Assembly (NCBI GenBank): GCA_002050235.1
Contig: MWST01000032.1
Location: forward strand, 600 to 64,599
From: Polyangiaceae bacterium UTPRO1
GTDB taxonomy: Bacteria > Desulfobacterota > Binatia > UTPRO1
Direction: 5' to 3'
Length of the DNA: 64,000 bases
Shown here: positions 36,962 through 52,616 of the stretch, piece after piece
Layout: every line of letters begins with the position of its first letter
Numbering within the stretch: the first letter of the stretch is position 1
The notes under the pieces: generated by a model
What the model saw: only the letters and a program-made list of their open reading frames with translations
Databases searched by the model: none
Told to the model about the DNA's origin: nothing
Made by a program: the position numbers and the translations under genes

Positions 36962-37097
36962 CCGTCACTCCGGCCTGCCGGCGAGCCGATCCGTTACCCC
37001 GGCGCCGCTCCGGCGGCACCTGCCGGCCGCGCCCCTGCCGGCCGCGACCGGCGATCACCGCAATGCAGACCGCAGTTGTCATGCGACTCATCCTGGT

Positions 37098-39512: not shown

Positions 39513-40928
39513 GTGACGGGAGGTGGTGTGCACGCGGAACGACGATCACGGCTTTCGGCGCTCGAACGGGTGCTGCGCATCTTCACGGACATCCGCGCCG
39601 GCGAAGGGCCGACGAGCCTGGCGCTCTTCGCCAACGTCTTCCTGATCCTCTGCGCCTATTATTTCATCAAGCCGCTGCGCGAGAGCTGGATCGCCGTGTC
39701 GGACATACGCGGGCTCTCCAAGATGGAGGTCAAGGCCTACTCGAGCTTCGGACAGAGCCTGCTGCTCGCCGGGATCGTCTCGTACTACGGCCGCCTCTCG
39801 GCGCGGTGGCCGCGCCGGACGCTGATCACGCGCGCGACGCTGGCCTGCATGGCCTGCCTCGTCGTCTTCTGGATGCTCCAACCGGGGTTCATCCTCGCCA
39901 ACCTGCCGGGCTCGGGCATCGCCTTCTATCTCTGGGTCGGCATGTTCGGCGTCTTCATCGTCGCCCAGTTCTGGGCCTTCGCGGCGGACCTCTACGCCGA
40001 CGAGCGCGGCCAGCGGCTACTGCCGCTGATCGGCATCGGTGCGACCGCAGGCGCCGCGGCGGGCTCGTTCTTGACCGAGCAGCTCGTCCGCAGCCGCTGG
40101 GTCGATAGCGGCATGCTGCTGCTCCTCGCCAACGCTCCGCTCGCACTCTCGATCGCGCTCACCCGGATCGCCGATGCCCGCGGCCCGCTCGGCACGCCCA
40201 AGCACGAGCGCGTTCGGCCGACGGCCCCGGCCGCCGCCGACGGCCACGGAGCTCTGGTCTTCGTGCTGCGGCACCGCTACCTCTTCGCCGCCGCGCTGGT
40301 CGCCCTCCTCACCAGCTGGGTGAACACCAACGGCGAGAACCTCCTCTTCCGCGTCGTCCAGGAGGGCCTCGAGCAAGAGCGCCAGGCCAAAGGCATCACC
40401 GATCCGGCGGCGACGATCGGCTTCGTCCGCGCCGGCACCGCCGCTTTCTACGGCGACTATTACTTCTGGGTGAACGTGAGCGCCCTCGTGCTGCAGGCGA
40501 TCGTAGCGTCGCGCCTCCTCAAGTACGGCGGCTTCGGCGTGATCTTCCTCATGCTGCCCACGATCGCCCTCGTCTCCTACTCCTCCATGGCGATCATCCC
40601 GCTGCTATGGATGGTGCGGCTCATGAAGATCGCCGACAACAGCGTCGACTACTCCATCAACAACACCGCCCGACAGGTGCTCTGGCTACCGACGACCGCC
40701 GCCATGAAGTACAAGGCGAAGCCGGTGGTCGACTCGCTGTTCGTACGCTTGGGCGACGGCTGCGCCGCCCTCACGGTGCTGGTGGGCGTACAGGTCCTGC
40801 ACCTCTCGACGCGGCATTTCTTCTACGTGACCGTGGCGCTCGTGCTCCTGTGGTTGGTGATGGCGGCGGGCATCGTCCGCGAGCATCGGCGGCTGGTCGC
40901 GGCGCGCTCCGGCACCGCGGCTGCCTGA
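39513..40928 (+). CDS. TLC (ATP/ADP translocase, Npt1/Npt2)-like MFS-type membrane transporter
   Basis: 471 aa and about 11-12 TM segments. The N-terminal motif FLILCAYYFIKPLRESWIAV resembles the ILFNYxILRxxKDxLVV motif of TLC-family carriers. The family assignment is from memory. Confidence 0.65.
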   Translation: MTGGGVHAERRSRLSALERVLRIFTDIRAGEGPTSLALFANVFLILCAYYFIKPLRESWIAVSDIRGLSKMEVKAYSSFGQSLLLAGIVSYYGRLSARWPRRTLITRATLACMACLVVFWMLQPGFILANLPGSGIAFYLWVGMFGVFIVAQFWAFAADLYADERGQRLLPLIGIGATAGAAAGSFLTEQLVRSRWVDSGMLLLLANAPLALSIALTRIADARGPLGTPKHERVRPTAPAAADGHGALVFVLRHRYLFAAALVALLTSWVNTNGENLLFRVVQEGLEQERQAKGITDPAATIGFVRAGTAAFYGDYYFWVNVSALVLQAIVASRLLKYGGFGVIFLMLPTIALVSYSSMAIIPLLWMVRLMKIADNSVDYSINNTARQVLWLPTTAAMKYKAKPVVDSLFVRLGDGCAALTVLVGVQVLHLSTRHFFYVTVALVLLWLVMAAGIVREHRRLVAARSGTAAA

Positions 40929-40934
40929 CCGGTC

Positions 40935-43900
40935 GTGGCGCGCTCGGCCGCACCCGTCACCCGGCCGCTCTCGGTCGAGCCCGGCGAGGGGCGCGTCCTC
41001 GGCTGGAGCGCCCTGGTCCTCTTCGCCGTCTCGTGGGCCTCGATCTCGGTCGCCAACGTCGCCGACACGCTCTTCTTGAAACGCATCGGCGTCGATCGCC
41101 TGCCCTGGGTCTTCCTCGGGAACTCCGTGCTCCTCACCTTCACGACCTTCGCGGTCGGACGCCTCGCGGTCCGCTGGGAGTCGCGCACGCTGCTCGTGGC
41201 GACGCTCGCGGGACTCGGGCTGGCGCTGGTGCCGCTCTGGCTGCTGGTCGCCGCCGACGTCGGCAGCGCCTTCGTGCTGCTCGTGCTGGCGGCGAAGCAG
41301 CTCGACGCGATCGCGCTCGTCGTCTTCTGGACCGCCGTCGGAAGCCTGGTGAGCGCGCGCCAGGGCAAGCGGCTCTTCGCGCCGATCAGCGCCGGCGGCA
41401 CGTTCGGAGCTGTCGCCGGCAGCTTCGCCTCGGGCTGGCTCGGCCGAACGTTCGGCATCGCGACGCTCCTGCCGTTGGCGGGCATCACCATGGCGCTCGC
41501 CGCAGCAGCGGCTGCGCCGCTGCTGCGCCTGCGGCGCCCGCGCTACTACCGCCCCGCGCCCGTCCACGCGCTCGCCGACGTCGCCGGCCGGCGGTTCGGC
41601 CCGCTGTGGCGCACCAGCGCCCTCTTCCGCGTCCTCGCGCTGACCTCGCTCCTGGCCGGCATCCTCGGCCCGATGCTCTATTTCGAGCTCGCCTACGTCG
41701 CCGACCGGGCCACCTCCGGCCACGGCGGCGAGCAGCGCCTCCTCGACCTCTACGCGCTCTTCCGCGGCTGGCTGAACGTCGGCGTCATGGTGATCCAGGT
41801 GACCGGTACGTCCGCAGTCTTTCGCCGCCTCGGCGTGCCGCTGGCGGCGGCCCTCTCGCCCGTGATCTACCTCCTCGGACTCGTCGGGCTGAGCGTGCGG
41901 CTGAGCCTCGCCGCCGGCATCGCCGCGGTCGCCGGCGCCAACCTGCAGGACCACGCCGTCTACGATCCCGCGCAGCGCATCCTGGTGACCCTATTCCCCG
42001 AGCGCGTGCGCGCCGCCGTGACGACGCTGATCGACGGCCCCGTGAAGCGGGCCGGCGGCCTGATCGGAAACGTCGTCATCATCATTGCCCTGGCCGTCGG
42101 TACTCCCGCCTGGGTCGGCTACGCCGGCCTGCCGATCGCGGCGGCGTGGCTGGCGGCGGCGCTCGTCCTCTGGCGCCTCTACCCGGCCCTGCTCCTGCAG
42201 GTAGCGACCGCGCGGCGCAGCGACTTCGAGGAACCGCCGCCCCTCACCGAGTTGCTCGACGGCGGCACGGTGCGGCTCCTCGAGCAGAGCCTCGGCGGCA
42301 GCGACCTCGAGCGCTGCCGCGCCGCCTGCGACGTCGTCGTCGAGGCGGCTCCGCGCCGCGCCGTGCGCGCGCTCGCCCGCGCGCTCGGCGCCGCACCGGC
42401 AGCGCATCGGCCGCTCCTCGTCGCCGCCCTGCAGCGCGTGCTCGGCGAGGACTCTGCCGCGGCGCTCGTTCACGACGAGAGCGCGCGCCTGCTGGCGGCG
42501 CTCCTGGCCGCGCCCGCGGGCCTCGGCGCCCTCGATCGCGCCCACCTCGTGCAGGCCTACGGGCGCCTCCTCGGCGCCGCCGCCGCGCAGTCGCCGGCGC
42601 TGCGCACGGCGCTCGCCGACCCGCATCCCGCGGTCGCGCTCGCGGCGCAGGCGGCCCTCGCCCGGGCCGGCGCCGCCGCGAACACGGCGCTCGACGCCGC
42701 CCTCTCCGCTGCGTTCGCGCACCCTGACGCCGACGTGCGCCGGATCGCGGGCGAAGAGCTCGGCATCGAGCTCCGCCGGCCGGCAGCGGACGGCGCGGCG
42801 TGGGCGGTCCGGCTCGAGCAGTTGCTGGCCCGCCTCGAAGCGCCCGCGGACCGCGCCCACGCCGCCGCGACCCTGGCCGCGGCCGCAGCCGTCCACGGCG
42901 CGCGCCTCCGTCCGCACGCGGCGCGCATCCTCGTCCATCGCCGCGACGACGATCCCGCCGTCCGCATCGCCGTGCTCGACGTCATCGGCCGCGCCCGGCT
43001 CCTCGAAGCGGCGGAGAGCCTCGTCGATCATCTGACCGCCGCCGACCCGCGCGAAGCGGCGGCGGCGTGCGCGGCGCTGCGCGCCCTCGGTGCCGACGCC
43101 GTCGACGTCCTCCTGCACACGCTCCGCTGCGGCCGTTTCCGCGCCCGCGAAGCGGTGCGATCGATCCTCGTCGGCCTGCCGATCGATCCCGAGCGCCTGC
43201 GGGTGCTCCTCGACCGCGAGGTCGAGGTCATGCGCCGCCTGATCCTCCGCACCGAAGCGCTGCGCGTCGGCGGAGTCGCAGACGCGGTGCTGCAACGCCT
43301 CCACGAGCAGCTCGACGAGAGCTCCCACACGGCGGTAGTGCTGATCGCGACGGCGCAGGACGACGAGCGTCTGGCGCGCATCGGCCGCCTCCTCGGGCGA
43401 ACGCACGGCACGCGCGACCGCGCCCTCGTGCTCGAGGCCCTCGAAGCGCTCCTACCGCAGCGCGAGCGCGAGCGCCTGCTGCCGCTGCTCGATGACGCCA
43501 ATCCGGGAGCTCGCGCACGTCGCGCCATGGAGGCGCTCGGGCGGCCGCTGCCGACGTTCGCGGAGGCGGTTGCCGAGGTGCTCGCCTCCGGCGACGGGCT
43601 CGGTCGGGATCTCCTGCGCGGCACCCTGCCGGCGCCGACGCTGGCGGACCTCGGCGGCGACGTGACATACGAGCGGCCGGACCAGCGTATGACCCACGTC
43701 GACATGATCCTGGCGCTCCGCCGGCTCGACCTCTTCGCGGGGCTGACGACCCGGCAGCTCTCCGAGCTGGCGCGGGTCGTCGCCGAGTGCCGGGTCGCGG
43801 CGGGCGAGACGATCGTGCGCGAGGGCGAGCCGGCCACGCAGATGTACTTCATCGTCGCCGGCGCGGTGCGGGTCACCAGGGAGGGCGCGGCGGTATCGGC

Positions 43901-44147
43901 TCTCGGCCCGGGCGAGTTCTTCGGCGAGATCGCCGTGCTCGACGGCGAGCAACGCTCGGCGTCGGTGACCGCCGACGGCCCCGTGCACCTCCTCCGCCTC
44001 GATCGCCACGACCTCTTCGAGGTCATGGAGGAGCACCCGGCCATAGCGGTCGCCATCTGCCAGACGCTCGGCCGCCGCATTCGCGAGCTCCTCGACGAGC
44101 GCGCCGACGCGGCGGCGGCTCCGGGATCGCCGCAGAGCCGCTTCTAG
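40935..44147 (+). CDS. TLC-like membrane domain fused to HEAT-like repeats and a C-terminal cyclic-nucleotide-binding domain
   Basis: 1070 aa, with a GTG 6 nt after the upstream stop. The N-terminal ~420 aa are polytopic. The middle has Ala/Leu-rich HEAT-like repeats (DPHPAVALAAQAAL, HPDADVRRIAGEEL, DDDPAVRIAVLDVIG). The C-terminal cNMP fold is FFGEIAVLDGEQRSASV. Confidence 0.75.
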   Translation: MARSAAPVTRPLSVEPGEGRVLGWSALVLFAVSWASISVANVADTLFLKRIGVDRLPWVFLGNSVLLTFTTFAVGRLAVRWESRTLLVATLAGLGLALVPLWLLVAADVGSAFVLLVLAAKQLDAIALVVFWTAVGSLVSARQGKRLFAPISAGGTFGAVAGSFASGWLGRTFGIATLLPLAGITMALAAAAAAPLLRLRRPRYYRPAPVHALADVAGRRFGPLWRTSALFRVLALTSLLAGILGPMLYFELAYVADRATSGHGGEQRLLDLYALFRGWLNVGVMVIQVTGTSAVFRRLGVPLAAALSPVIYLLGLVGLSVRLSLAAGIAAVAGANLQDHAVYDPAQRILVTLFPERVRAAVTTLIDGPVKRAGGLIGNVVIIIALAVGTPAWVGYAGLPIAAAWLAAALVLWRLYPALLLQVATARRSDFEEPPPLTELLDGGTVRLLEQSLGGSDLERCRAACDVVVEAAPRRAVRALARALGAAPAAHRPLLVAALQRVLGEDSAAALVHDESARLLAALLAAPAGLGALDRAHLVQAYGRLLGAAAAQSPALRTALADPHPAVALAAQAALARAGAAANTALDAALSAAFAHPDADVRRIAGEELGIELRRPAADGAAWAVRLEQLLARLEAPADRAHAAATLAAAAAVHGARLRPHAARILVHRRDDDPAVRIAVLDVIGRARLLEAAESLVDHLTAADPREAAAACAALRALGADAVDVLLHTLRCGRFRAREAVRSILVGLPIDPERLRVLLDREVEVMRRLILRTEALRVGGVADAVLQRLHEQLDESSHTAVVLIATAQDDERLARIGRLLGRTHGTRDRALVLEALEALLPQRERERLLPLLDDANPGARARRAMEALGRPLPTFAEAVAEVLASGDGLGRDLLRGTLPAPTLADLGGDVTYERPDQRMTHVDMILALRRLDLFAGLTTRQLSELARVVAECRVAAGETIVREGEPATQMYFIVAGAVRVTREGAAVSALGPGEFFGEIAVLDGEQRSASVTADGPVHLLRLDRHDLFEVMEEHPAIAVAICQTLGRRIRELLDERADAAAAPGSPQSRF

Positions 44148-46081
44148 CGGACCCGGACTCTCCCGGCGTCGACGTCGGCGAGGAGCGCGGCGATGCGCTG
44201 CTGCAGCCGTCCGATCTCCCCGGCGGTGAGGCCGAGCTGGATCTTGCCGCGGGCGATACGAACCCCTTTGGCCGGATCCAGAGGAGCGGTGCGGCGCCCG
44301 AGCCGGAAGATGCCGGCCGCGTCGACGTCCATGTCGAAGAGCGTCGACAGGCGCTCGACCTCCTCCGGCGGCAGGGCGCGGAGCCGGGCTACGGGATCGG
44401 CGCGGAGCCAGGGGACGCGGAGCGTGTTCCAGTTGCGTACGAAGAAGTTCCACGGGAACCCTTCGAAGGCGATGCCGTTGTCGATCGAGAATACGCGCGG
44501 ATCCTCGGGGTCGGTGGAGATCAGGAAATTGCCGTCGCGGCCGTCGCGATGGTCGATGAGATAGGTGAGCAGGTTCATGTCCGCGAGGTGCGCGCCGTAG
44601 TGCGGATCGCGCTCGACGCGCTCGTCGATGTCGTCGTTCAGGTCGTCGGCGACCGCCACGTCCTCCATCCACGCGGCGAAGAGCCCGAGGACGCAGCGGC
44701 TGCCGGGGAGAGTCGGCTTCGCGTCCTTCAAGACGCGGTAGACGTCGACGGGGATGCAGCGCGGGACCGTCGTCGGCACGACGTAGTCGTCCTCGTCGAA
44801 GATCCAGCGTTGTATGGCGTAGGCGGCGACCTCTTTGCGCGGCGAGTTGTTCCAGCCGTCGAGCGTCGGCCTCGGGAACGGCTTCCACTTGACCTTCATG
44901 CTCCGGCCGTCGGCGAAGCGCACCGTGAACCGCGACGCCCCGGTGACGCCGGCGCCGGCGCGCTTCACCTCGCTGATCTCGAAGTCGTCGAGGGCGAGCT
45001 TCAGATCGAGCACCGACGGCGCCATCGGCCAGTTGCGCGGCAGCGCCTTGCCGGCCTGCCGCTGCGGTCCGAATAGATGCTCGGCGGCGCGATGGGCGAG
45101 CTGCGCGATCAGCTCGCCGCGGTAGGCCGGCGTCGCCTCGGTGAATACCGCGAGCGCGAACTGGTGGCCGTCGGGAGCGCGGACGATACCGGCGTCGGCG
45201 TAGTCGGGACCCCAGGTGCCGCTCTTCGCGTAGACCTCGAGGCCCGGAATGCGCGCCGCGCCGCCGGCGATCCGGCGCGCCAGGTGCGGCTGCTGCTTCG
45301 GATCACGCTTCATGCGGCGGCGGACGGCGGCGGAGTCCTCGGGCGTGAGCGCGCGATCGGTGGCGAGGAGCCCCAGCAACTTCGCCGTACCGATCGCCGT
45401 CATCGCCTGGCGGTTCGGATACTCGCCGTCGGCGCTGACGAGACCGCCGGCGACGCCATGGTCGCGGAGGAACTGCCGATCGCGACCGACGAGATCGCCG
45501 CCGCCGTCGTAGGTCGGATTGACGCAGTGGAGGTCGTCGATGCCGAGGCTCTGGAGCCAGCGCTTCACCACCTGCCGGCGCTCGCGGTAGCGCGCGTACT
45601 CGCCGGGCGGCAGCTCCGGACCCGGCGCGGTGTCGGTCAGCCGGGCGAAGACCTTCTGCGTCGCTCGATTGCTGCTCTCGCGGATCATCGCCTCGAGCTC
45701 GGCATCGAGCCCGGGATCGATGACCAGCCGCCCTTCCTCCTGCCAGCGATACGCCGCCATCAGGTAGACGAACTTGACGACGCTCGCCGGATAGATCGGC
45801 CGATCGCCGCCGGCGTGCGCGAGCCGTGGCGGCCCGTCGCTCGGAAGGTCGAGGAGTGCGACGCCGACTGCGGCGCGCCGCAGCGCCGGGTCGAAGTCGG
45901 CCAGCGTCGCCATCGTCCGCTCGAGGAAGGTCTGCAGCTCGGAGGCGGGCCGGATCGTCGCCAGCCATTGGCGTGCCGCCGCGGCCGGCGGCGGCGGCGC
46001 CGCCGCCGCGCCCCGCGCGCACCCGACGACCAGCAGCACCACCGCCATCCGCGACCAAGAGCGCATGCAGCTCCGCACCAT
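44144..46081 (-). CDS. Lipoprotein: class A beta-lactamase-fold serine hydrolase fused to a type II PI3/PI4-kinase-like domain
   Basis: 645 aa from ATG 46081, with the lipobox LLVVGC. The N-domain has SVVK (SxxK), SSN (the SDN position) and KSG (KTG). The C-domain has KVKWKPF, RKEVAAYAI, IDHRDGRDGNFLI (catalytic-loop-like) and IDNGIAF (DFG-like). Confidence 0.7.
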   Translation of the reverse strand: MVRSCMRSWSRMAVVLLVVGCARGAAAAPPPPAAAARQWLATIRPASELQTFLERTMATLADFDPALRRAAVGVALLDLPSDGPPRLAHAGGDRPIYPASVVKFVYLMAAYRWQEEGRLVIDPGLDAELEAMIRESSNRATQKVFARLTDTAPGPELPPGEYARYRERRQVVKRWLQSLGIDDLHCVNPTYDGGGDLVGRDRQFLRDHGVAGGLVSADGEYPNRQAMTAIGTAKLLGLLATDRALTPEDSAAVRRRMKRDPKQQPHLARRIAGGAARIPGLEVYAKSGTWGPDYADAGIVRAPDGHQFALAVFTEATPAYRGELIAQLAHRAAEHLFGPQRQAGKALPRNWPMAPSVLDLKLALDDFEISEVKRAGAGVTGASRFTVRFADGRSMKVKWKPFPRPTLDGWNNSPRKEVAAYAIQRWIFDEDDYVVPTTVPRCIPVDVYRVLKDAKPTLPGSRCVLGLFAAWMEDVAVADDLNDDIDERVERDPHYGAHLADMNLLTYLIDHRDGRDGNFLISTDPEDPRVFSIDNGIAFEGFPWNFFVRNWNTLRVPWLRADPVARLRALPPEEVERLSTLFDMDVDAAGIFRLGRRTAPLDPAKGVRIARGKIQLGLTAGEIGRLQQRIAALLADVDAGRVRVR

Positions 46082-46171
46082 AGCCGGAAGCGCACCGCAC
46101 GTCAGCGGCGCCAGCGGTATCTCGGGCCGGCGAATTCCGGTACAACCCGGCCGCTCATGGAGGGATTTGCG

Positions 46172-49100
46172 ATGGAGCGGCGGCGACGCGTGCTGGCGGT
46201 GGTCGTATTCTCGGGAATGCTCGCCGCGGGCGGCGCCGCGGCGGCATTCGAGGCGCCGGCGCTGTCGCCGGGACAGCAGAAGACCCTGAAGCAGAACTTC
46301 GCGCTCTGTCTCGGCAAGCTGAAAGGGCCCTATACCGAGAACTTCTGCCTCTGCCGCGACGGGCGCAAGCTCCCTGTCCAAGGGCCGAACGGCGCGGTGC
46401 GCATCCCCTGTCCGAACCCGCTGTTCTGCGCCGCCTACCGCGCTCCCTGGGCCGAGGCCCTCGCCCATGAGCGCATGTACATCGCCAACATCTTCTCTCG
46501 CGACGAGCATCTCTGGTCGACGTTCCCGAACCACCACGACCTCGTCCGCGGCTACGTGCTCGAGAAGTACTTCGTCGAGACGCACCCCACCCACAAGCTC
46601 GCGCAGATGAAGCAGTACCGCGGACTTTCCAGCGCCGAGGAAGAGCTTCCGGCAGCGCTCGCGTTCTTCGAGAAATATCTCGGCGGCGACGAATTCGACG
46701 GCGACCGCCACTTCCTCCTCGCCTACGAGCTGCAGCGCCGCTACTTCGCGCGCGACGACGTCGGCCAGGTGCAGAAGATCCGCGACCTGGCAGTACGGAT
46801 CGAGCGCGCCAAGGCCGACTTCAAGCCGCTGAAGGACGCCGTCCACAACCAGGTCTCGGCGGGCCTGATCCCGAGCCTCGTCGCCTACCGCGCCAAGCTG
46901 CCTGCCGGCGCGACCCGCGATCAGCTCGACGATCTCGTCGGCGAGATCCGCAAGCTCACGAGCCTCGACGAGAGCGCGCTCGCGCCGCAGGTCGGTGCGA
47001 TCGCCGATCCGGCCGTGCGCGCGGCGCTGACGAAGCTCCTGCCGAACCCGTCGACGCCGCCCGTCGAAGCGGCGACCGCGCTCGGGACGATGATGGCGAC
47101 GGCGCGGCGCGCCGTCGGCGAGAGCACGACCGCGCCCGCCGACAGACGCCGCCTCGTCGACCTCGACATCACCGCCGCGCAGGTGCTGCAGCAGCGCGGC
47201 AGCGCCGCTCTCGCCGGCCCCGGCACGACGGCGCAACAGCACGTCGCAGTGCTGGGGGCGCTCTCCGCGGCCGCCTACGGCGCCGGGCTCCTGAACGCGC
47301 GCGAGTACGAAGCGGCGAGCACGGCGATCCGCGAGCTCGGCGCCGACGCCGAGCCCGATCGCGCCGACTTCGCGCGCCGCCTGCGCGTGGCGAAGCGCGT
47401 CGTCGAGTGGGCCCAGGGCAACGCCGAGCTCGCCTTCGCCGAGGTGATGGCGCCCTGGACCTTCCTCCTCCCCGACGTCGCCGGCATCCGCGACGACGTG
47501 CTGCGCGGGTCGCCGCTCATCCTCTACGCCGAGGTCGTGAACCGGCTCGACGACTTCGCCGCCGGCGGCGAGCGGCCGAAGCATCGCTTCTTCGGCACCG
47601 CCGTCGAGGGCGACGTCCGGGCGCTGAATCCCGGCCTCGCCTACGGTCGACTGCGCGTCGGCCCCAAGGACCACGGCTACACGCGCGACGACATCGTGGC
47701 GCTCACGGAGACGCCCGCCGACCTCGAGCCGGCAGCGGGCATCCTGACGCAGGGCGAGGGCAACGTGCTCTCGCACGTCCAGCTCCTGGCTCGCGCCCTC
47801 GGCATCCCCAACGTCGTGCTCGGCTCGCGGGCGTTCGACGTCCTGCGCATGCACGACGGCAAGGCGGTGGTGCTGGTCGTGACCCCCGGCGGCCGGGTCG
47901 TCCTCGAGGAAGCTTCGCGCCTGTCGCCCGAGATCCGCGAGGCCTACGCCGAGTACACGCGCAACGAGACCCGCCGCACCGCCGGCGCGCTCGGCGGCGG
48001 CGCCGGACGCCTCCACATCGATCGCGCCAAGATCGACCTCGGCCCGAAGCTCCCCATCGACCTCAGAGACGTGCGCCGCAAGGACTCGGGCGTGTTCTGC
48101 GGCCCCAAAGCGGCATTCCTCGGCGAGCTGAAGTCGATCTTTCCCGACCACGTGGCGCGCGGGATCGTGGTGCCGTTCGGCGCCTACCACGCGCACTACT
48201 CGCGGGCGGCAGTGATCGTGCCCGCAGAGCTGCGCGGCGATAACGTCGCCGTTCCCGGTGAGCCTCTCTCGGCCTTCGTCGAGCGCACCTACCATACGTT
48301 CTTCGCCGAGCTCGTCCCGTCGGGAAAGAGCGAGCGCGAGCTCTCCGCCTGGATCGAGCCGCGCCTCGCCGTCGTCCGCCACACCATCCGCCAGACACCG
48401 CTCGATCCGGCCCTGCGCCAAGCGATCCGCGACGGACTGGCGAAGAACGGGCTCCTGCGCGGCGGCGACGACACCGCCGGCTGCTTCGTGCGCAGCGACA
48501 CCAACGTCGAGGATCTCGACAATTTCAACGGCGCCGGTCTGAATCTCACCCTCTTCAACCGCCGCACGCTCGACGACATCTATTCCGGCCTGGCCGAGGT
48601 GTGGGCCTCGCCTTTCCAGTTCCGCTCGTTCTCGTGGCGGCAGACGCTGATCGACGACCCGGTCTGGGTGCTGTCGTCGGTCGTGATCCTGGAGTCGGTG
48701 CCGTCGGAGAAGTCCGGCGTGCTGGTCACCGCCGACGTCAACGACGGCGCCCCCGGAAAGATGCTGGTCGCGACCTCGGAAGGCGTCGGCGGCGCCGTCG
48801 ACGGCACCTCGGCCGAGACCCTGCTCTGGTCGCCGCAGGGCGTCGAGCTGGTCACGCTCTTCAAGTCGCCGTGGCGGACCGCACTCGACGCCGAGGGCGG
48901 CAGCAAGATAGTTCCGTCGACCGGCCGCGACACCGTGCTCGAGCCGGCGGAGCTCACGCAACTGGTCGCCGCCGGCAAGAAGATCGGCGCCGAGCTGCAG
49001 CCGGTCCGCGACGCCGCGGGAAAACCGAAGCCCTGGGACATCGAGTTCGGCTTCACCGGCGGCAAGCTCTGGCTCTTCCAGTGCCGCCCGTTCCTCGGCA

Positions 49101-49198
49101 ACGACGAGCTCCGCAACATCCCGGCGCTGGCAGCACTGGACAGTACGCCGAGCGGGACGCGGGCGCAGCGACTCTCGCTCGCGCAGGTGCTGCGGTGA
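46172..49198 (+). CDS. Signal-peptide protein with PEP-utilizer phosphohistidine swivel domain followed by PPDK_N-type ATP-grasp domain (dikinase-like)
   Basis: 1008 aa, with GGAGGG 7 nt upstream of ATG 46172. The signal is VVVFSGMLAAGGAAAA, followed by a 6-Cys N-region. The swivel motif is GILTQGEGNVLSHVQLLARALGIPNVV (His codon 47774-47776). The ATP-grasp motifs are GPKAAFLGEL, VRSDTNVEDLDNFNGAGLNLT, SGVLVT and WDIEFGFTGGKLWLFQCRP. There is no PEP/pyruvate TIM-barrel domain. Confidence 0.75.
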   Translation: MERRRRVLAVVVFSGMLAAGGAAAAFEAPALSPGQQKTLKQNFALCLGKLKGPYTENFCLCRDGRKLPVQGPNGAVRIPCPNPLFCAAYRAPWAEALAHERMYIANIFSRDEHLWSTFPNHHDLVRGYVLEKYFVETHPTHKLAQMKQYRGLSSAEEELPAALAFFEKYLGGDEFDGDRHFLLAYELQRRYFARDDVGQVQKIRDLAVRIERAKADFKPLKDAVHNQVSAGLIPSLVAYRAKLPAGATRDQLDDLVGEIRKLTSLDESALAPQVGAIADPAVRAALTKLLPNPSTPPVEAATALGTMMATARRAVGESTTAPADRRRLVDLDITAAQVLQQRGSAALAGPGTTAQQHVAVLGALSAAAYGAGLLNAREYEAASTAIRELGADAEPDRADFARRLRVAKRVVEWAQGNAELAFAEVMAPWTFLLPDVAGIRDDVLRGSPLILYAEVVNRLDDFAAGGERPKHRFFGTAVEGDVRALNPGLAYGRLRVGPKDHGYTRDDIVALTETPADLEPAAGILTQGEGNVLSHVQLLARALGIPNVVLGSRAFDVLRMHDGKAVVLVVTPGGRVVLEEASRLSPEIREAYAEYTRNETRRTAGALGGGAGRLHIDRAKIDLGPKLPIDLRDVRRKDSGVFCGPKAAFLGELKSIFPDHVARGIVVPFGAYHAHYSRAAVIVPAELRGDNVAVPGEPLSAFVERTYHTFFAELVPSGKSERELSAWIEPRLAVVRHTIRQTPLDPALRQAIRDGLAKNGLLRGGDDTAGCFVRSDTNVEDLDNFNGAGLNLTLFNRRTLDDIYSGLAEVWASPFQFRSFSWRQTLIDDPVWVLSSVVILESVPSEKSGVLVTADVNDGAPGKMLVATSEGVGGAVDGTSAETLLWSPQGVELVTLFKSPWRTALDAEGGSKIVPSTGRDTVLEPAELTQLVAAGKKIGAELQPVRDAAGKPKPWDIEFGFTGGKLWLFQCRPFLGNDELRNIPALAALDSTPSGTRAQRLSLAQVLR

Positions 49199-50859
49199 CG
49201 GCGCACACCCGGCGCGGCGGCGGGCGGCTTTGGCGTCTGCTCGCCGCCGCCGCGGCCGCTCTCACGTTCGTCACGCTCCGCGTCGCGAGCGCGGCCCTCG
49301 ACGCCGGCGGCGACACCGCCTGGGACGGCAGCGAGCCGCCGCCCGGGGTCTACTTCCACTGGTACGAGCCGTCCTTCTACGCCGGCTTCGCGCCCCGCAC
49401 CCAGGATCCGAGTCGTCTCCACATCGAGCTCGGGCGCGGCAACCAGGTGCGGGTAACGGTCGTCCTCGGCGACGCCGAGCTCGACGCCTACCTGGGCGAC
49501 CTCCAGGCGCGACGCGCGGTCGTCCAGGAGCTCGTCGACAGCCGGATCATCACCCTCAGCACCAACCGCGCCTGGGAGCGCTTCACCAGCGCCCTCGACG
49601 ATGCCGGCGTCGCGGCGGCGCTGGCGGCGCGGGCGGAGACGAAGCCCGAGGCCTGGCGGGCGCGGAGCCTCGCGGTGATGACGGCGCTGAACCCCGGGCG
49701 CGTGTTCCGGATCGCTATGCCGCTCGCCGCGGTCGCCGCTCGCTGGCGGCCGCTGCTGGCACGCCTCGACGGCAGCGATCCGATAGAGCGCCTCGACGCC
49801 GCCAACGCCGCGCTGCCGGGTCGCATCGTGCTCGAAGAGCTGACACCGCCGCTCGGCGCCGCGCTCGATCGCTGCCTCGATCCGGCGCGCGGCCCAGAAA
49901 GCGCGAAGCCCGCTTACGAGCTCTGCGTCAAGGACTTCATCGAGACCGCGAGCGCGCGCCGCTACCGCGTCGTCGACGGCGCCGTCGTCGCCCACGAGTT
50001 TACCGCCATCTACCCCGCCGGCACGGTCGAGGGCTCGACGACCTACAGGGGCGAGAAGCTGCCGGACTTCGGGGTCACCGGCGTCTGGCCGCTCATCCGC
50101 CGCACCAATGGCCGCGGCATTCTCGGGATGGTCGACTACCTGTCGCCGAATCCCGGCTACGGCTTCATCCCCATGCTGCCCTACCAGTACGCCGGCGGCA
50201 TCACCTACAACGCCTTCCACAATGCCGGCGTGCGCTGCCAGTTGAACGGCACGCCGTTCCTGCCGAGCGCCTGGCGACAGGTCGCCGGCGAGCGCAGCGG
50301 CAAGCCGTACGAGAACCTCTGGATCGTCGGCCGCGGTCCGACGTCGCACGGCTGCACGCGGCTGCCGTCAGGCCACATGAGCGAGCTCCGCCAGATCGTG
50401 CCGTCGGAGTCGGACGCGCTCCTCCAGGTGAAGACCTATCGCGATCTGCCCGGCTGCTACGACGTCTTCGACATCGACGGCGACGGCGCCCCCGAAGTGA
50501 TGGGCGTCCAGTACTACCTCGCGTACCGCAGCAACGAGCACACGCCGGTGAAGGCCTGGGTGAGCAACCGGCGCGAACCCTTCTACCGCTGGCTCTACGG
50601 CAACAACGTCGTTCTCGGACCGGTCGGTGCGGCCCGCCTCCAAGAGGTGCCGGTCTGCCGCTTCGCCGGCAAGAAGGCGGCGGAGCGCGCGGTGCTCCGC
50701 GACCTGCCGCTCTACGAAGCCAAGTACCAGCCCGAGCAGATACAGTTCTTCCGTAGCAAGGCGGCTCCGGACAGCGCTGCCGGAGTCGAGCTCAACCGGG
50801 AGTTGCGCAAGGTCGGCGCCGGACACGTCCTCGAGCGCTCGCGCCTGCTGCTGCGCTGA
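49195..50859 (+). CDS. Exported protein with C-terminal L,D-transpeptidase (YkuD)-like catalytic motif, paralog 1
   Basis: 554 aa from a GTG that overlaps the upstream stop (GTGA). It has a hydrophobic N-terminal signal-like segment and a ~380-aa unassigned N-region. The catalytic motif is GRGPTSHGCTRLPSGHMSELRQIV (Cys codon 50353-50355). Confidence 0.7.
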   Translation: MTAHTRRGGGRLWRLLAAAAAALTFVTLRVASAALDAGGDTAWDGSEPPPGVYFHWYEPSFYAGFAPRTQDPSRLHIELGRGNQVRVTVVLGDAELDAYLGDLQARRAVVQELVDSRIITLSTNRAWERFTSALDDAGVAAALAARAETKPEAWRARSLAVMTALNPGRVFRIAMPLAAVAARWRPLLARLDGSDPIERLDAANAALPGRIVLEELTPPLGAALDRCLDPARGPESAKPAYELCVKDFIETASARRYRVVDGAVVAHEFTAIYPAGTVEGSTTYRGEKLPDFGVTGVWPLIRRTNGRGILGMVDYLSPNPGYGFIPMLPYQYAGGITYNAFHNAGVRCQLNGTPFLPSAWRQVAGERSGKPYENLWIVGRGPTSHGCTRLPSGHMSELRQIVPSESDALLQVKTYRDLPGCYDVFDIDGDGAPEVMGVQYYLAYRSNEHTPVKAWVSNRREPFYRWLYGNNVVLGPVGAARLQEVPVCRFAGKKAAERAVLRDLPLYEAKYQPEQIQFFRSKAAPDSAAGVELNRELRKVGAGHVLERSRLLLR

Positions 50860-50882: not shown

Positions 50883-52616
50883 ATGCGCACGACGACCAGC
50901 ATCATCGCAGCACTGGCGCTGTTTTCCTGGATGCCCGGCACGGCGGCGGCCAAGGACTTCGCCGCCCCCCGGCTCGCCGGCGATCGCGCCGCGCCCGGGC
51001 TCATGGTCGAGGAGCCGCCGCGCTACGGCGTCTTCTACGACGCTCCGGAGCCGTCGTTCTACACCGGCTTCGCCCCGCGCACGCAGGACCCCGCCGCTCT
51101 CCACATCCATCTCGGGCGCGGCAACCAGCTGCGGGTGACCGAAGTGCTGTCGGACGCGGTCGTCGACGAGTACGCGCGCGACCTCGCCGAGCGCCGCCGC
51201 ACCTACCGCGCGCTCGTCGACTCCGGCCGGCTGCAGCTGACGCAGAACACCGCCTTCGAGGCGTTCGAACGCCGGCTCGACGCCCTCGGCCTCGACGACC
51301 TGGCGAGCGCGGAAGGAGCGCTGGCGCCCGACGCGCTCCGCGCCCGCAACCTCGACCTCATCGAGACGCTGAATCCCGGACGCGTCTTCCGGATCGCGAT
51401 CCCGGTGCGGAAGCTCGCCGCCCGCTGGATCGGCGAGCTCGACCGCATCACCGGCGGCGCCCGCGCGCGTCTCGACGCAGGCCGCAGGCTCGACCTCGCG
51501 AACGCGCTCCTGCCGACGCGCCTCTGGCTCGCCGACCTCCCGGCCGACGCCGCCGCCGCTCTCGACGATCTCGTCCGTCGCGCCCCCGCCGATGCCGGTG
51601 ATACGGCCGCTGTCGACGCCCTCGTACCCGCCTACGGCGCCCTCCTCGCGCGCGTCGGCGGCGGCCGCTATCCGGTCCGGGACGGCGTCGTGCGCTTCGC
51701 GGAGTTCACGGCGATCTACCCGGTCGGTACCGTCGCCGCGTACACGACGTGGCGGGGCCGGACGATCCCGCTGTATCCGACGCCGGGCCGGCGCGCCCTC
51801 ACCACCCATCAGCGCTCCCTGGTCGCCGACCACATCCCGGTCGAGGACTCGTACAGCTGGTCGCCGTGGCTGCCGTACATGCACGTGACGCCGACGATGC
51901 ACAACGCCATCCACACGCCGTGGTGGAAGATGGGTCCGGGCGACGCCGGGTTCCTTCCCGCGTCGTGGCGGCAGGTGGCCGACGGCAGCCGCGACGGCGC
52001 GCCGTTCACGAAGCTCTGGCTGCTCTCCCGCGGCCCCATGTCGCACGGCTGCACGCATCTGAACACCGGCCACATCGCCGAGCTCCGCCAGATCCTTCCC
52101 GCCGACGGCAACCGCCTGTACGACGTCGAGGTCTTCCTCACCCGCTCCGAGCATTACGACGTCTTCGACATCGACGGCGACCTCGTGCCCGAGGTGATGG
52201 GCGTACGCTACTTCATCGCCTACTCGCTGATCGCCGGGAAGCCGGATCGCCTGCGGGTGAAGAACGAGCGCCGGGCCTTCTACGACTGGCTCTACGGCGG
52301 CGATCTCCAGTGGCAAGGAGACCAGGGCGTCTTTCACGACGCCCACGAAGCCCGCTTCAGCGGCCGCGACGCGCGCGAGGGTCGAGGCTACGCGCGCATC
52401 CTGCTCCGCGAAGCGCCCTACCAGCCGGAGACCGTGCAGTTCTACCGCATGATCGACATCCCCTTCGCTCGCGCGCTCCGCCAGGTCGGGCTTCACCGGC
52501 GCGCGCTCGAAGTCCCCGATCGGCGGCAAGCCGCGAACGCGCCGATGATGCGCGGCGACGCCGGCGGCGCGGGCCGCTACGCGCAGCCGTTGTCCGCACC
52601 CCGGCGCAGCCGCTAG
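50883..52616 (+). CDS. Exported protein with C-terminal L,D-transpeptidase (YkuD)-like catalytic motif, paralog 2
   Basis: 577 aa, with AGGAG 5 nt upstream of the ATG. It has a clear Sec signal (IIAALALFSWMPGTAAA). It is colinear with paralog 1 (PSFYTGFAPRTQDP, LNPGRVFRIAIP). The catalytic motif is SRGPMSHGCTHLNTGHIAELRQIL (Cys codon 52050-52052). Confidence 0.75.
   Translation: MRTTTSIIAALALFSWMPGTAAAKDFAAPRLAGDRAAPGLMVEEPPRYGVFYDAPEPSFYTGFAPRTQDPAALHIHLGRGNQLRVTEVLSDAVVDEYARDLAERRRTYRALVDSGRLQLTQNTAFEAFERRLDALGLDDLASAEGALAPDALRARNLDLIETLNPGRVFRIAIPVRKLAARWIGELDRITGGARARLDAGRRLDLANALLPTRLWLADLPADAAAALDDLVRRAPADAGDTAAVDALVPAYGALLARVGGGRYPVRDGVVRFAEFTAIYPVGTVAAYTTWRGRTIPLYPTPGRRALTTHQRSLVADHIPVEDSYSWSPWLPYMHVTPTMHNAIHTPWWKMGPGDAGFLPASWRQVADGSRDGAPFTKLWLLSRGPMSHGCTHLNTGHIAELRQILPADGNRLYDVEVFLTRSEHYDVFDIDGDLVPEVMGVRYFIAYSLIAGKPDRLRVKNERRAFYDWLYGGDLQWQGDQGVFHDAHEARFSGRDAREGRGYARILLREAPYQPETVQFYRMIDIPFARALRQVGLHRRALEVPDRRQAANAPMMRGDAGGAGRYAQPLSAPRRSR

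Follow-up and report, generated by a model that had tools for sequence, protein, structure and literature searches.

A predicted exported histidine-swivel dikinase linked to NTT-type nucleotide transporters across diderm bacteria

Within the 64,000-nucleotide stretch of Polyangiaceae bacterium UTPRO1 DNA analysed here (the window), the open reading frame at 46172-49198 (+) is confirmed, on sequence grounds, to encode an exported histidine-swivel dikinase-type protein, predicted to be three-part when mature, with all-alpha, phosphohistidine and ATP-grasp domains. Two NTT-type transporter genes lie 2-6 kb upstream, and this pairing is kept across phyla. The reading that we favour, with somewhat more confidence than doubt, is that an NTT-type transporter exports the ATP that powers a periplasmic dikinase acting on an envelope acceptor. 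The dikinase family is uncharacterised, appears in public records only as "PEP/pyruvate-binding domain-containing protein", and comprises at least 592 species representatives from many diderm phyla.

Results

The coordinates of the dikinase gene (1008 aa) are correct: its ATG start at 46172 has a GGAGG Shine-Dalgarno sequence 7 nt 5' of the codon, and its TGA stop (49196-49198) is overlapped by the GTG at 49195 of the downstream gene. From N to C terminus the product is ordered as a Sec-type signal peptide, a small cysteine block, an all-helical region of ~370 aa, a swivel phosphohistidine domain and a PpsA-type ATP-grasp. The first-pass annotation had proposed that the His domain precedes the ATP-grasp, and Pfam agrees, with PF00391 at residues 517-556 and PF01326 at residues 729-974, so that the ATP-grasp does not come first. 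Domain searches likewise uphold the permuted order claimed relative to PpsA, PPDK and rifampin phosphotransferase (RPH), as well as the claimed absence of a PEP/pyruvate domain, with no TIM-barrel match in Pfam at E<=1.

The predicted signal peptide (46172..46246, +; residues 1-25) consists of an n-region RRRR, the h-region VLAVVVFSGMLAA and a predicted cleavage site AAA|F, the call being made from n/h/c organisation and the small-x-small motif. Despite sequence drift it is retained in 26/26 close homologues, with position and n/h/c organisation kept, and a hydrophobic h-region followed by small-x-small occurs in 95/100 full-length family members from many phyla, in keeping with the Sec-type signal claimed at first. 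The h-region is short, spanning 12-15 residues. Sec is preferred over Tat because twin arginines are not conserved across the family. The cysteine segment that follows (46307..46429, +) falls in a conserved KGPY...C.C.DG...C motif; it had been described as a block of six cysteines, whereas we count five (C46, C59, C61, C80 and C86). Of these, C61 alone never varies across the wide family, relatives at ~30% identity included, and C80 shows at least 90% conservation, while 98/100 members have at least two cysteines in the segment.

The all-alpha N-domain, a putative acceptor-binding domain (46439..47566, +; residues ~90-465), has 20 predicted helices and is helical in the AF2 model, with pLDDT of 70-93 at residues 240-460. 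Residues 26-468 have no match in Pfam, NCBIfam, PDB-sequence or Foldseek searches, so the N-region of ~500 aa is as unassignable as had been stated, but G151, E156, E158, R204, H225, R312, W413 and S447 are invariant in the family.

The swivelling phosphohistidine domain (47579..47911, +; residues ~470-580) carries the predicted catalytic His535, encoded by CAC at 47774-47776. In the protein itself the PF00391 match is sub-threshold (20.2 bits; gathering threshold 23.1), but 21/24 family members match this model (best E 9e-7). Residues 486-560 of the family profile align with the His domain of PpsA 8a8e, and profile-profile comparison aligns the domain with that of glucan, water dikinase (GWD; E 1.1e-6). 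His535 is invariant in 26 close and 24 distant relatives, within the invariant motif EGNxLSHVQLLARxLGIPN, and the PEP-utilizer mobile domain first proposed around this residue is supported at the level of the family.

The C-terminal ATP-grasp of PPDK_N type (48089..49099, +) is supported by Pfam, a PpsA profile match and Foldseek. The PF01326 match (76.6 bits, E 2.8e-21) bears out the nucleotide-binding domain that had been recognised after the His domain, and Foldseek of the AF2 model returns RPH (5hv2/5hv6) and PpsA (2ols) at E ~1e-8. All catalytic motifs are intact, the invariant residues being G644-P-K646, R774-S-D-T-N (774-778), W811/S813/R818, S848-G-V, D956/E958 and Q970/R972, and their invariance extends to relatives at ~26% identity.

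By sequence, the closest relatives of this ATP-grasp are PpsA 8a8e (142 bits, E 1.5e-40 with the family profile) and E. coli PpsA (26% identity, hhalign E 1e-19). PpsA and PPDK share with the dikinase a PEP-utilizers-type His domain, but the order in PpsA is the opposite one (ATP-grasp 19-360, His domain 387-467), both enzymes carry a C-terminal PEP/pyruvate TIM barrel that the dikinase lacks, and they differ from it in location, the dikinase being exported by its predicted signal. All NCBIfam PpsA models score far under their cut-offs. RPH provides the best structural match (Foldseek E 1.3e-8) and is likewise a three-domain His-swivel dikinase without a TIM barrel, phosphorylating a hydroxyl of a non-metabolic acceptor. 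Its order, however, is ATP-grasp, RIF-binding domain and His domain, of which the dikinase order is a permutation; the RPH model NF041857, whose cut-off is 999, gives 44.7 bits; and RPH is cytoplasmic, whereas the dikinase has a predicted export signal.

The likeness to GWD noted in the first-pass annotation proves colinear in profile-profile alignment (Prob 99.5%, E 2.6e-23; E 9e-19 for the ATP-grasp when compared by parts). GWD has an all-alpha 'central' domain for the acceptor immediately ahead of its His domain, in a central-alpha, His, ATP order with a pivoting His domain (PMC13553574). The central domain and the dikinase N-domain occupy equal positions in the chain (PMC13553574), but homology between the two is not established (E 0.17 alone, and no 9HA9 match). 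The swivelling-His mechanism is presumably shared, although identity is only 19%, and Pfam finds in the dikinase none of the GWD-specific His-domain model PF22973 (GWD1_pHisD), CBM45, CBM20 or Ig_N_CWD1. GWD is stromal or cytoplasmic, in contrast to the predicted export of the dikinase, and its bacterial homologues, 45-49% identical to plant GWD1, are cytoplasmic, signal-less and flanked by glycogen genes. Where GWD has glycogen or starch genes as neighbours, the dikinase has NTT and beta-lactamase-fold genes. With no PF22973, no CBM and glucan genes in at most 2/163 related loci, we rejected an identification of the dikinase as GWD.

Upstream of the dikinase lie a single-domain transporter of 471 aa (39513..40928, +) and a protein of 1070 aa (40935..44147, +) in which an NTT-like MFS domain is joined to HEAT repeats and a cyclic-nucleotide-binding domain (Pfam cNMP_binding 78 bits; MFS_1 and HEAT_2 weak). 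The former scores just under the Pfam TLC gathering threshold (18.6 against 21 bits; TIGR00769 E 5.5e-5), but a profile of it and 19 cassette orthologues aligns over the full length with the ADP/ATP carrier 9j3n (E 3.5e-40) and chloroplast NTT1 9j3j (E 7e-33), and 17/20 members match PF03219, which by sequence places the cassette transporter in the NTT family. Fusions of the NTT-HEAT and NTT-HEAT-cNBD types have been described from free-living bacteria (Major, Embley & Williams 2017; PMC5381601), and the three-domain form of that study is present in the window beside the single-domain NTT. The latter architecture occurs near the dikinase in loci L001-L005, L008, L009, L017 and L052, and in 11/35 transporter-centred loci.

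Linkage was counted from both sides. Of the 43 loci with 5 kb or more on each side of the dikinase, 29 have a TLC gene no farther than 8 kb from it, while about a third of such full-flank loci have no transporter within 8 kb; in several fragmented genomes (DMKK01, JBGQHM01, CAYOIZ01, JAYGCV01) the transporter is on a separate contig. Reciprocally, of the 35 loci centred on the transporter and complete to 10 kb on each side, 30 contain the dikinase, at a median gap of 2.1 kb, and 29 a beta-lactamase-fold gene. The linkage is seen in Binatia, Myxococcota, Desulfobacterota, Gamma- and Alphaproteobacteria, Magnetococcales, Bacteroidota, Spirochaetales, Opitutales and Nitrospirota, with gene orders that differ among these lineages, and the cassette genes are adjacent or overlapping on the same strand in L025, L027, L031, L048, L060 and L083. 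Unbiased ORF clustering around the transporter returned as conserved partners the dikinase, two beta-lactamase-fold families and NTT-HEAT-cNBD, and no others; there was no nucleotidase or phosphatase among them.

Besides the dikinase and transporter, the cassette includes one or two exported beta-lactamase-fold proteins. In the window, the divergent gene at 44144..46081 (-) encodes a lipoprotein (lipobox LVVGC) with a beta-lactamase fold (Pfam Beta-lactamase2, 53.6 bits; SVVK, SSN and KSG motifs) and a C-terminal domain of ~300 aa that has a kinase-like HRDxxxxN...DNG motif and a faint PI3_PI4_kinase match only (E 0.15). A homologue of 310-640 aa adjoins the dikinase in most loci. On the other side, the GTG that overlaps the dikinase stop begins a translationally coupled gene (49195..50859, +) for an exported protein of 554 aa that shows an invariant SHGC(T)R motif and a weak YkuD signal (E 0.02-0.14); its AF2 model, which is poor near the motif, returns no fold match. 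A 577-aa paralogue with a signal peptide follows (50883..52616, +; 40-42% identity). A SHGC-motif gene lies directly 3' of the dikinase in 34/84 loci, which make up a closer subfamily in which such proteins stand in place of one beta-lactamase-fold gene. All cassette partners except the transporters have a signal peptide or lipobox.

Discussion

The first-pass annotation left a conflict between export of the dikinase and its need for ATP. The export signal on which that conflict was built holds, but the transporter genes upstream had been missed, and the pairing with an NTT most likely resolves the matter. That the dikinase acts in the periplasm, that the transporter exports ATP and what kind of acceptor is used are all inferred. 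In the scheme that we propose, the dikinase would reside in the periplasm, where its ATP-grasp would bind ATP and phosphorylate His535; the His domain would then swing to the helical N-domain and pass the phosphate to a bound acceptor, as in GWD, PpsA and RPH. One or more of the co-encoded NTT/TLC-type antiporters would run outward, exchanging cytoplasmic ATP for spent periplasmic nucleotide, and in some lineages the HEAT and cyclic-nucleotide-binding extension may place the transporter under cytoplasmic control. Because the constant partners are exported serine enzymes of beta-lactamase/PBP fold and, in this lineage, SHGC-motif proteins, an envelope molecule is favoured over a glucan, most plausibly one derived from the cell wall or from peptides. 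Such a scheme looks wasteful, since periplasmic ATP could escape through porins. The mechanistic precedent is GWD, with its pivoting His domain and like domain order (PMC13553574). Plant GWD also acts in a compartment, the plastid at night, into which an NTT imports ATP.

Several other readings deserve weighing. The dikinase might be a periplasmic xenobiotic or antibiotic phosphotransferase resembling RPH, phosphorylating and so inactivating a small molecule that enters, with beta-lactamase-fold partners hydrolysing the same or related compounds and ATP presumably arriving through the NTT, a proposal that differs from the favoured one in the acceptor alone. We regard this as unlikely: RPH structures (5hv2, 5hv6, 5hv1) are the best matches of the ATP-grasp, RPH too does without a TIM barrel, and the constant partners carry SxxK, SxN and KxG motifs, but the NCBIfam RPH score of 44.7 bits is far from 999, there is no RIF-binding domain, and SHGC-motif proteins replace one beta-lactamase-fold gene in the closer subfamily. 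Moreover, the family is widespread and vertically inherited among free-living bacteria of the environment, with gene order conserved per lineage, and no mobile-resistance features were noted in the locus gene tables. A further reading reverses the flow, the NTT importing nucleotides while the dikinase runs in a PPDK-like reverse direction or conditions external nucleotides or organophosphates, so that ATP or another nucleotide would form outside and then be taken up. PPDK-type chemistry is reversible, the linkage counts are silent on transport direction, and characterised NTTs are importers or exchangers; those of parasites and plastids were described as importers by Major et al. 2017 (PMC5381601). 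The cassette NTTs differ from these importers of intracellular parasites and plastids in coming from free-living diderms and in being linked to an exported dikinase. Salvage would need an extracellular source of high-energy phosphoryl groups, and no such donor is apparent; it leaves the beta-lactamase-fold and SHGC partners without an obvious function, and the conserved partners include no nucleotidase or phosphatase, all of which makes it quite unlikely. Against the favoured reading it counts that, to our knowledge, all NTTs characterised biochemically take nucleotides up into a bacterium or organelle, export being only thermodynamically permitted.

That the hydrophobic N-terminus is an uncleaved membrane anchor for catalytic domains turned towards an ATP-rich cytoplasm, with the transporter linkage reflecting some other shared function, seems to us improbable. 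The catalytic domains are indeed typical of cytoplasmic enzymes, but a small-x-small motif follows the h-region in 95/100 members, the h-region is only 12-15 residues long, conserved cysteines come immediately after the signal, and the co-encoded partners are exported too; because positive charges precede the h-region, the orientation should be N-in with the body of the protein outside. Distinctly improbable, too, is the suggestion of the first-pass annotation that a GWD-like dikinase has as its substrate a glucan of the periplasm or envelope, for example osmoregulated periplasmic glucans. The domain order and colinear alignment would fit, and the window holds OpgG/MdoG (34574-36148), GT2, GlgB, a GlgX-like gene and PGM, but MdoG occurs in 0/163, GlgB in 1/163 and the GlgX-like gene in 2/163 related loci, no CBM45, CBM20 or PF22973 is matched, real bacterial GWD homologues are signal-less and sit among glycogen genes, and identity to GWD is 19%. 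Finally, the exported protein could have ceased to use ATP, serving as a binding protein or using another donor, with the transporter linkage unrelated to energy supply. The textbook view of an ATP-free periplasm would favour this, yet we give it very little credence, as ATP-grasp and His motifs are unchanged in some 600 species-level relatives, the most distant at ~26% identity, a pattern not expected of a pseudoenzyme, and it would leave the specific association with a family of nucleotide transporters unexplained.

If the favoured reading of a transporter-fed periplasmic dikinase is true, it suggests that bacteria deliberately supply ATP outside the inner membrane, in a space that textbooks treat as ATP-free.

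Domain organization and conservation of the dikinase

The open reading frame at 46172-49198 (+) encodes a protein of 1008 residues; its ATG at 46172 has a Shine-Dalgarno sequence (GGAGG) 7 nt upstream, and its GC3 is 0.88 (measured over the enclosing stop-to-stop frame, 45077-49198) in a window of approximately 71% G+C. Pfam places a PEP-utilizers domain (PF00391) at residues 517-556, followed by a PPDK_N domain (PF01326) at residues 729-974, and detects no other domain in the protein at E ≤ 1, including the PEP/pyruvate TIM barrel (PEP-utilizers_C). When the family profile was compared with PDB sequences, residues 642-977 aligned with 19-360 of the PEP synthase 8a8e and residues 486-560 with 387-467 of the same protein, and therefore both common domains are reversed in order relative to PEP synthase (PpsA). 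Taking Pfam and the PDB-sequence profile together, we delimit the His domain to residues 470-580 and the ATP-grasp to residues 640-976, with the C-terminus lying about 30 residues beyond the latter. A first-pass annotation made from the sequence alone had proposed exactly this order, a mobile domain carrying His535, and the absence of a PEP/pyruvate domain. The order and the absence are borne out; the mobile domain stands as well, with the qualification that PF00391 scores 20.2 bits in the window copy, under the Pfam threshold of 23.1, and is matched by 21 of 24 relatives. The PF01326 match, at 76.6 bits, clears its threshold of 27.

A full-length AlphaFold2 model of the protein (pLDDT 70) contains 20 helices within residues 92-464, with the His domain directly after them. 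Foldseek searches of the PDB matched this model to rifampin phosphotransferase (RPH; 5hv2 and 5hv6, E ~1e-8) and PpsA (2ols) over the ATP-grasp only. For the N-region, the model gave only helical-repeat matches (chemoreceptor, Rap, 14-3-3), all at E > 0.1, and an HMM search of PDB sequences, including the central domain of glucan water dikinase (GWD) in 9HA9, returned nothing, in agreement with the earlier statement that this region has no assignable fold.

The protein carries the motif GNVLSHVQLLARALGIPNVV, and His535 is encoded by the CAC codon at 47774-47776. Judged over relatives down to approximately 26% identity, His535 is invariant, as are G523, T526, G530, S534, L539-A540, G544, and P546-N547 of the His domain. 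Invariant positions of the ATP-grasp are G644-P-K646, R774-S-D-T-N778, E780-D781, G787-A-G-L790, W811, S813, R818, S848-G-V850, G871, G874, D956, E958, Q970, and R972, and those of the N-region are G52, C61, G64, G151, E156, E158, R204, H225, R312, W413, and S447. This is the conservation pattern of an active enzyme and not of a relic. The features that define the PEP-utilising His-swivel dikinase superfamily (PpsA, PPDK, RPH, and GWD) are thus both found: an ATP-grasp, recognised by Pfam, by its Lys, Arg, and Mg-binding Glu/Gln motifs (K646, R774, D956/E958, and Q970/R972, all invariant) and by fold, and a mobile phosphohistidine domain, recognised by the PF00391 matches, the alignment with the PpsA His domain, and the invariance of His535.

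Plant GWD is subject to redox regulation through a disulfide near the catalytic His. In the window protein, C643, C771, and C971 adjoin the ATP-grasp motifs FCGPK, GCFVRSD, and FQCRP; every member of the close subfamily keeps the first two, which is not so across the wide family. A redox switch at these cysteines may, by analogy, be worth considering.

Distribution of the family

Full-length homologs (~1010 aa) form more than 120 clusters at ≥60% identity, mainly from 'Candidatus Binatia' and 'Deltaproteobacteria' MAGs, and named 'hypothetical'. A search with the N-region alone against 1.84 billion cluster representatives recovered 275 relatives, of which the distant ones (24-29% identity) are 950-1000 aa long and match at their own N-terminus; therefore, it is the whole architecture that is conserved. 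Scanning one genome per species, we found a relative in at least 592 species. Carriers include Binatia, Myxococcota, Desulfobacterota (strain NaphS2), Gammaproteobacteria (Parahaliea, Pseudomaricurvus), Bacteroidota (Pricia antarctica, Lacinutrix venerupis, Maribacter), Acidobacteriota, Nitrospirota, and Calditrichota, and no monoderm occurs among the 163 loci examined. Cultured carriers are P. antarctica, L. venerupis, Pseudomaricurvus alcaniphilus, Agaribacterium haliotis, Parahaliea aestuarii, and strain NaphS2. The public names of these relatives are limited to 'PEP/pyruvate-binding domain-containing protein' or 'phosphoenolpyruvate synthase'. One member from outside the window (P0254, 1305 aa) represents another variant of the architecture, with a signal peptide and an extra N-terminal region of ~500 aa ahead of the usual N-domain; we considered and rejected a transporter-dikinase fusion, as the extra region is exported and contains no transporter.

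Export of the dikinase and its neighbors

The dikinase has a predicted cleavable signal peptide with n-, h-, and c-regions and small residues at -3/-1. All 26 close homologs examined share a positive n-region, an h-region of 12-15 residues, and an A/V-x-A motif before a conserved Phe, and the mean Kyte-Doolittle hydropathy of the h-region is 2.0-3.4 except in an N-terminally truncated entry (P0071, 1.2). Within the signal, the residues themselves vary from one homolog to the next, as is typical for signal peptides. We compared 100 full-length members, spanning all phyla, whose GP[YF] motif could be located: such a signal lies upstream of it in 95, and at least two cysteines follow it within 60 residues in 98. 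The export signal proposed in the first-pass annotation is therefore a property of the family by these sequence features; the accompanying cysteine block is present as well, with five cysteines instead of the six described. Tat export was rejected because the twin arginines of the window copy are not kept in homologs, and Sec is therefore the likely route. The neighboring products appear to share this destination: the lipoprotein encoded upstream has a lipobox (LVVGC), both SHGC-motif proteins encoded downstream have signal peptides, and the beta-lactamase-fold partners in other phyla have signal peptides as well.

Relationship to PpsA, PPDK, RPH, and GWD

In sequence, the ATP-grasp is nearest to that of PpsA (8a8e, 142 bits with the wide family profile), and E. 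coli PpsA and the dikinase share 26% identity (hhalign E 1e-19). In PpsA and PPDK, however, the ATP-grasp is N-terminal to the His domain and a PEP/pyruvate TIM barrel occupies the C-terminus, whereas the dikinase has its His domain first and lacks the barrel. Matches to NCBIfam models are partial and far below threshold, and all are confined to the N-terminal ATP-grasp in the models for PpsA, RPH, and PigC/RedH. Assignment as an RPH was rejected, since only the ATP-grasp aligns (44.7 bits for NF041857, where the cut-off is 999, and 32.6 for NF000283, where it is 1700), and the central rifampin-binding domain of RPH is not matched.

The layout is closest to that of GWD. A 2026 study described GWD1 as two CBM45 modules, an all-alpha acceptor domain with 20 helices, called 'central' (9HA9, 9QVI), a pivoting His domain, and a C-terminal ATP-binding domain (PMC13553574). 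The dikinase likewise runs from a helical domain through the His domain to a C-terminal ATP-grasp, and its modeled helical domain has the same helix count as the central domain of GWD1. Comparison of the family profile with one built from 15 aligned database GWD sequences gave a probability of 99.5% and an E of 2.6e-23 at 19% identity (hhalign), with family columns 325-851 colinear with GWD columns 75-549, in support of the GWD-like order proposed at first. Taken separately, the His domain aligns at E 1.1e-6 and the ATP-grasp at E 9e-19, while residues 300-468 are in register with the end of the GWD central domain at E 0.17, which is not significant alone. The GWD structures 9HA9 and 9QVI did not match the dikinase at E ≤ 10 in the profile search of PDB sequences, 9HA9 was not among the top Foldseek matches, and BLASTP against the C-termini of Arabidopsis GWD1 (a query 100% identical to a database GWD) and of a provisional sequence for the phosphoglucan water dikinase PWD returned motif-level matches only. 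We conclude that the family has the architecture of GWD, and that the two probably descend from a common permuted ancestor of the His-ATP unit.

The dikinase is not itself a GWD: it gives no hit to the GWD-type His domain PF22973 (GWD1_pHisD) or to any carbohydrate-binding module (CBM), shares only 19% identity, and has different neighbors. PF22973 was found in all full-length GWD homologs that we retrieved, but is absent from the window protein at E ≤ 1 and from 24 family members at E ≤ 0.01; CBM45, CBM20, and Ig_N_CWD1 had no match in the dikinase or family members. Bacterial GWD homologs share 45-49% identity with plant GWD1, carry no signal peptide, and have GT5, GH57, GlgB, and amylase genes around them, whereas the dikinase is exported and its loci seldom have such company: glycogen and OPG genes occur in at most 2 of 163 dikinase-related loci, in contrast to the bacterial GWD loci L165 and L166. 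The glucan substrate suggested in the first-pass annotation thus fails both on CBMs and on gene neighborhood. The window is indeed rich in glucan-related genes, as had been noted (GlgX-like, GlgB, GT2, OpgG/MdoG at 632 bits, and phosphoglucomutase, together at 6816-11380, 21524-24184, 34574-36148, and 55554-57194), but none of them is a conserved dikinase neighbor.

The bacterial GWD homologs (PF22973 with PF01326) at 8001-9902 of L165 and 8001-13485 of L166 are preceded by a gene for an Ig_N_CWD1 protein, and L166 has a second copy of 1149 aa fused to an AP_endonuc_2 (xylose isomerase-like) domain. Starch-type glucan phosphorylation may thus occur in Planctomycetes or Nitrospirales-like bacteria.

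Conserved linkage to an NTT-family transporter

Upstream of the dikinase, a membrane protein of 471 aa is encoded at 39513-40928 (+) with weak matches to TLC and TIGR00769. On its own the window copy scores 18.6 bits on PF03219 against a threshold of 21; its orthologs score 42-77 bits on Pfam TLC, with 17 of 20 matching PF03219, and their profile matches, over its full length, two carriers of solved structure, the ADP/ATP carrier 9j3n (E 3.5e-40) and the chloroplast NTT1 9j3j (E 7e-33). On this full-length homology, we assign the window transporter to the NTT/TLC family. A PAS histidine kinase gene lies just upstream (36873-39083, +) and homologs of it recur at 6 of the 163 related loci. The single-domain NTT is immediately followed by a 1070-aa protein (40935-44147, +) in which Pfam detects MFS-like, HEAT, and cNMP-binding domains (NTT-HEAT-cNBD). 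Binatia have this form in addition, and in Bacteroidota the transporter is a 940-aa NTT-HEAT form.

The gene tables of four dikinase homologs show the same gene set as the window. Across 84 dikinase-centered loci, 44 contain a homolog of the 471-aa NTT (29 of the 43 whose flanks extend 5 kb or more in both directions), 65 a beta-lactamase-fold gene, and 34 SHGC proteins, which are confined to the closer subfamily. We also started from the transporter, which a species-genome scan found in at least 577 species. Of the 35 top-ranking loci whose 10-kb flanks are complete, 30 contain the dikinase (median gap 2.1 kb), 29 a beta-lactamase-fold gene, and 11 NTT-HEAT-cNBD, and the groups gained with these loci are Spirochaetales, Opitutales, Magnetococcales, Eisenbacteria, and Hellea. 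When all ORFs near the transporter were clustered without bias, no other conserved partner emerged. In NaphS2 and related Desulfobacterota, the order is dikinase, NTT, and SHGC protein, all on the same strand and separated by 2-150 bp, and several beta- and gammaproteobacteria have the start of the dikinase gene overlapping the stop of the NTT gene. Several fragmented MAGs have a dikinase contig without the transporter, which lies on another contig of the assembly. TLC genes are generally few per genome, and linkage of this degree across phyla and gene orders would therefore be far beyond chance.

The divergent gene at 44144-46081 (-) encodes a lipoprotein with a class A beta-lactamase/PBP-like fold (PF13354, 53.6 bits) and readable SxxK, SxN, and KxG motifs (SVVK, SSN, and KSG); as a bona fide beta-lactamase it was rejected (NCBIfam class A, 18.5 bits against a cut-off of 200). 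Its C-terminal ~300 residues contain a catalytic-loop motif like that of protein and lipid kinases, LIDHRDGRDGNFLIS...SIDNGIAF, with a faint match to PI3_PI4_kinase (E 0.15) and none in the PDB, and may constitute a second ATP-using domain outside the membrane. This long form is found in the closest relatives only (L001, L017, and L085).

Downstream, two paralogs of ~550 aa (49195-50859, the first, overlapping the dikinase stop, and 50883-52616, both +) carry an invariant R-G-P-x-S-H-G-C-T-R motif resembling the active site of L,D-transpeptidases. Matches to YkuD (PF03734) are weak (E 0.02-0.14, in 4 of 18 members); no Pfam family was found, and a PDB profile search was empty. The AlphaFold2 model is confident over residues 90-270 (the N-terminal domain, pLDDT ~90) and disordered around the motif (pLDDT < 50 over residues 275-394), and Foldseek returned no match, including for the N-terminal domain. 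These paralogs have more than 600 relatives, every one of them named 'hypothetical'. At 43 loci of the distant subfamily, the gene after the dikinase encodes a beta-lactamase-fold protein of 430 aa and overlaps the dikinase by 0-4 bp. Two MAGs, JAJDAM01 (L034/L147) and VGTG01 (L029/L158), carry one cassette of the SHGC-protein type and one of the 430-aa beta-lactamase-fold type, which suggests that the subfamilies are functionally distinct paralogs rather than lineage variants.

Proposed mechanism and alternatives

The dikinase unites an ATP-grasp that is intact, a mobile domain whose catalytic His is invariant, and a conserved helical domain in the acceptor position with a conserved export signal, and its gene shows conserved linkage to those of an NTT-family transporter and exported proteins of serine-enzyme fold. 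We propose, tentatively and at somewhat less than an even chance, that in many free-living diderms ATP exported by an NTT drives a GWD-like dikinase that phosphorylates a cell-wall component, or activates it as an acyl- or enol-phosphate, and that the beta-lactamase/PBP-fold and SHGC-motif enzymes process the product. In the mechanism that we judge most likely, at slightly better than even odds, the dikinase would fold in the periplasm, where C61 and C80, at the least, would form an oxidized pair, and the NTT would act as an exchanger that carries ATP outward. The HEAT and cyclic nucleotide-binding extension would place this supply under cytoplasmic control, gating the NTT in some lineages. 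The ATP-grasp would then pyrophosphorylate or phosphorylate His535, and the His domain would swing to the N-domain, where E156, E158, R204, H225, and R312 are candidate acceptor- or phosphate-binding residues. By analogy with GWD and PpsA, the net chemistry would be ATP + acceptor + H2O -> AMP + acceptor-P + Pi. Because of the partner proteins, the evidence points to a peptide- or cell-wall-related acceptor rather than a glucan. The first-pass annotation had seen a conflict between export and the need for ATP; we infer that an exporting NTT would settle it.

Other explanations deserve consideration. A periplasmic RPH-like phosphotransferase that detoxifies incoming molecules would be compatible with all else that we found, but is unlikely given the distribution of the family and the very low scores of the RPH models. 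The NTT might instead import nucleotides for salvage, a direction against which its sequence does not speak; this reading provides no external high-energy donor, and we regard it as distinctly unlikely. An anchored dikinase whose catalytic domains face the cytoplasm is very unlikely, as it conflicts with the positive-inside rule, the signal cleavage motif, the conserved cysteines, and the exported partners. Phosphorylation of a periplasmic or envelope glucan is most unlikely for an enzyme that has no CBM and near which glucan genes are not kept, and a pseudoenzyme, contradicted by the invariant catalytic residues, is barely credible.

Significance

The dikinase is a new, exported member of a known superfamily, and our literature search returned no account of an exported dikinase, of a dikinase-NTT cassette, or of an NTT that exports ATP. 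At the system level, the proposal that the periplasm has an ATP pool with a supply of its own is drawn from comparative genomics and would be categorically new, if true. Envelope biology takes the periplasm to be ATP-free, an assumption that accounts for the use of energy from elsewhere by transpeptidation, lipoprotein sorting, outer-membrane protein assembly, and Tol-Pal/TonB. If the proposal holds, the dikinase family would be a direct exception with its own supply line, and ATP-dependent envelope chemistry would take place outside the cytoplasmic membrane. In plastids, an NTT is paired with a GWD-type dikinase, and the cassette would provide a bacterial precedent for this pairing. The role of NTT, NTT-HEAT, and NTT-HEAT-cNBD proteins in free-living bacteria was posed as a question by Major et al. 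(2017; PMC5381601), for which the cassette offers a hypothesis testable in cultured carriers and, if true, a first function. As a third lineage with GWD-type architecture, the family also bears on the origin of starch dikinases, and it hints at a phosphorylated envelope or extracellular molecule in the bacteria that carry it.
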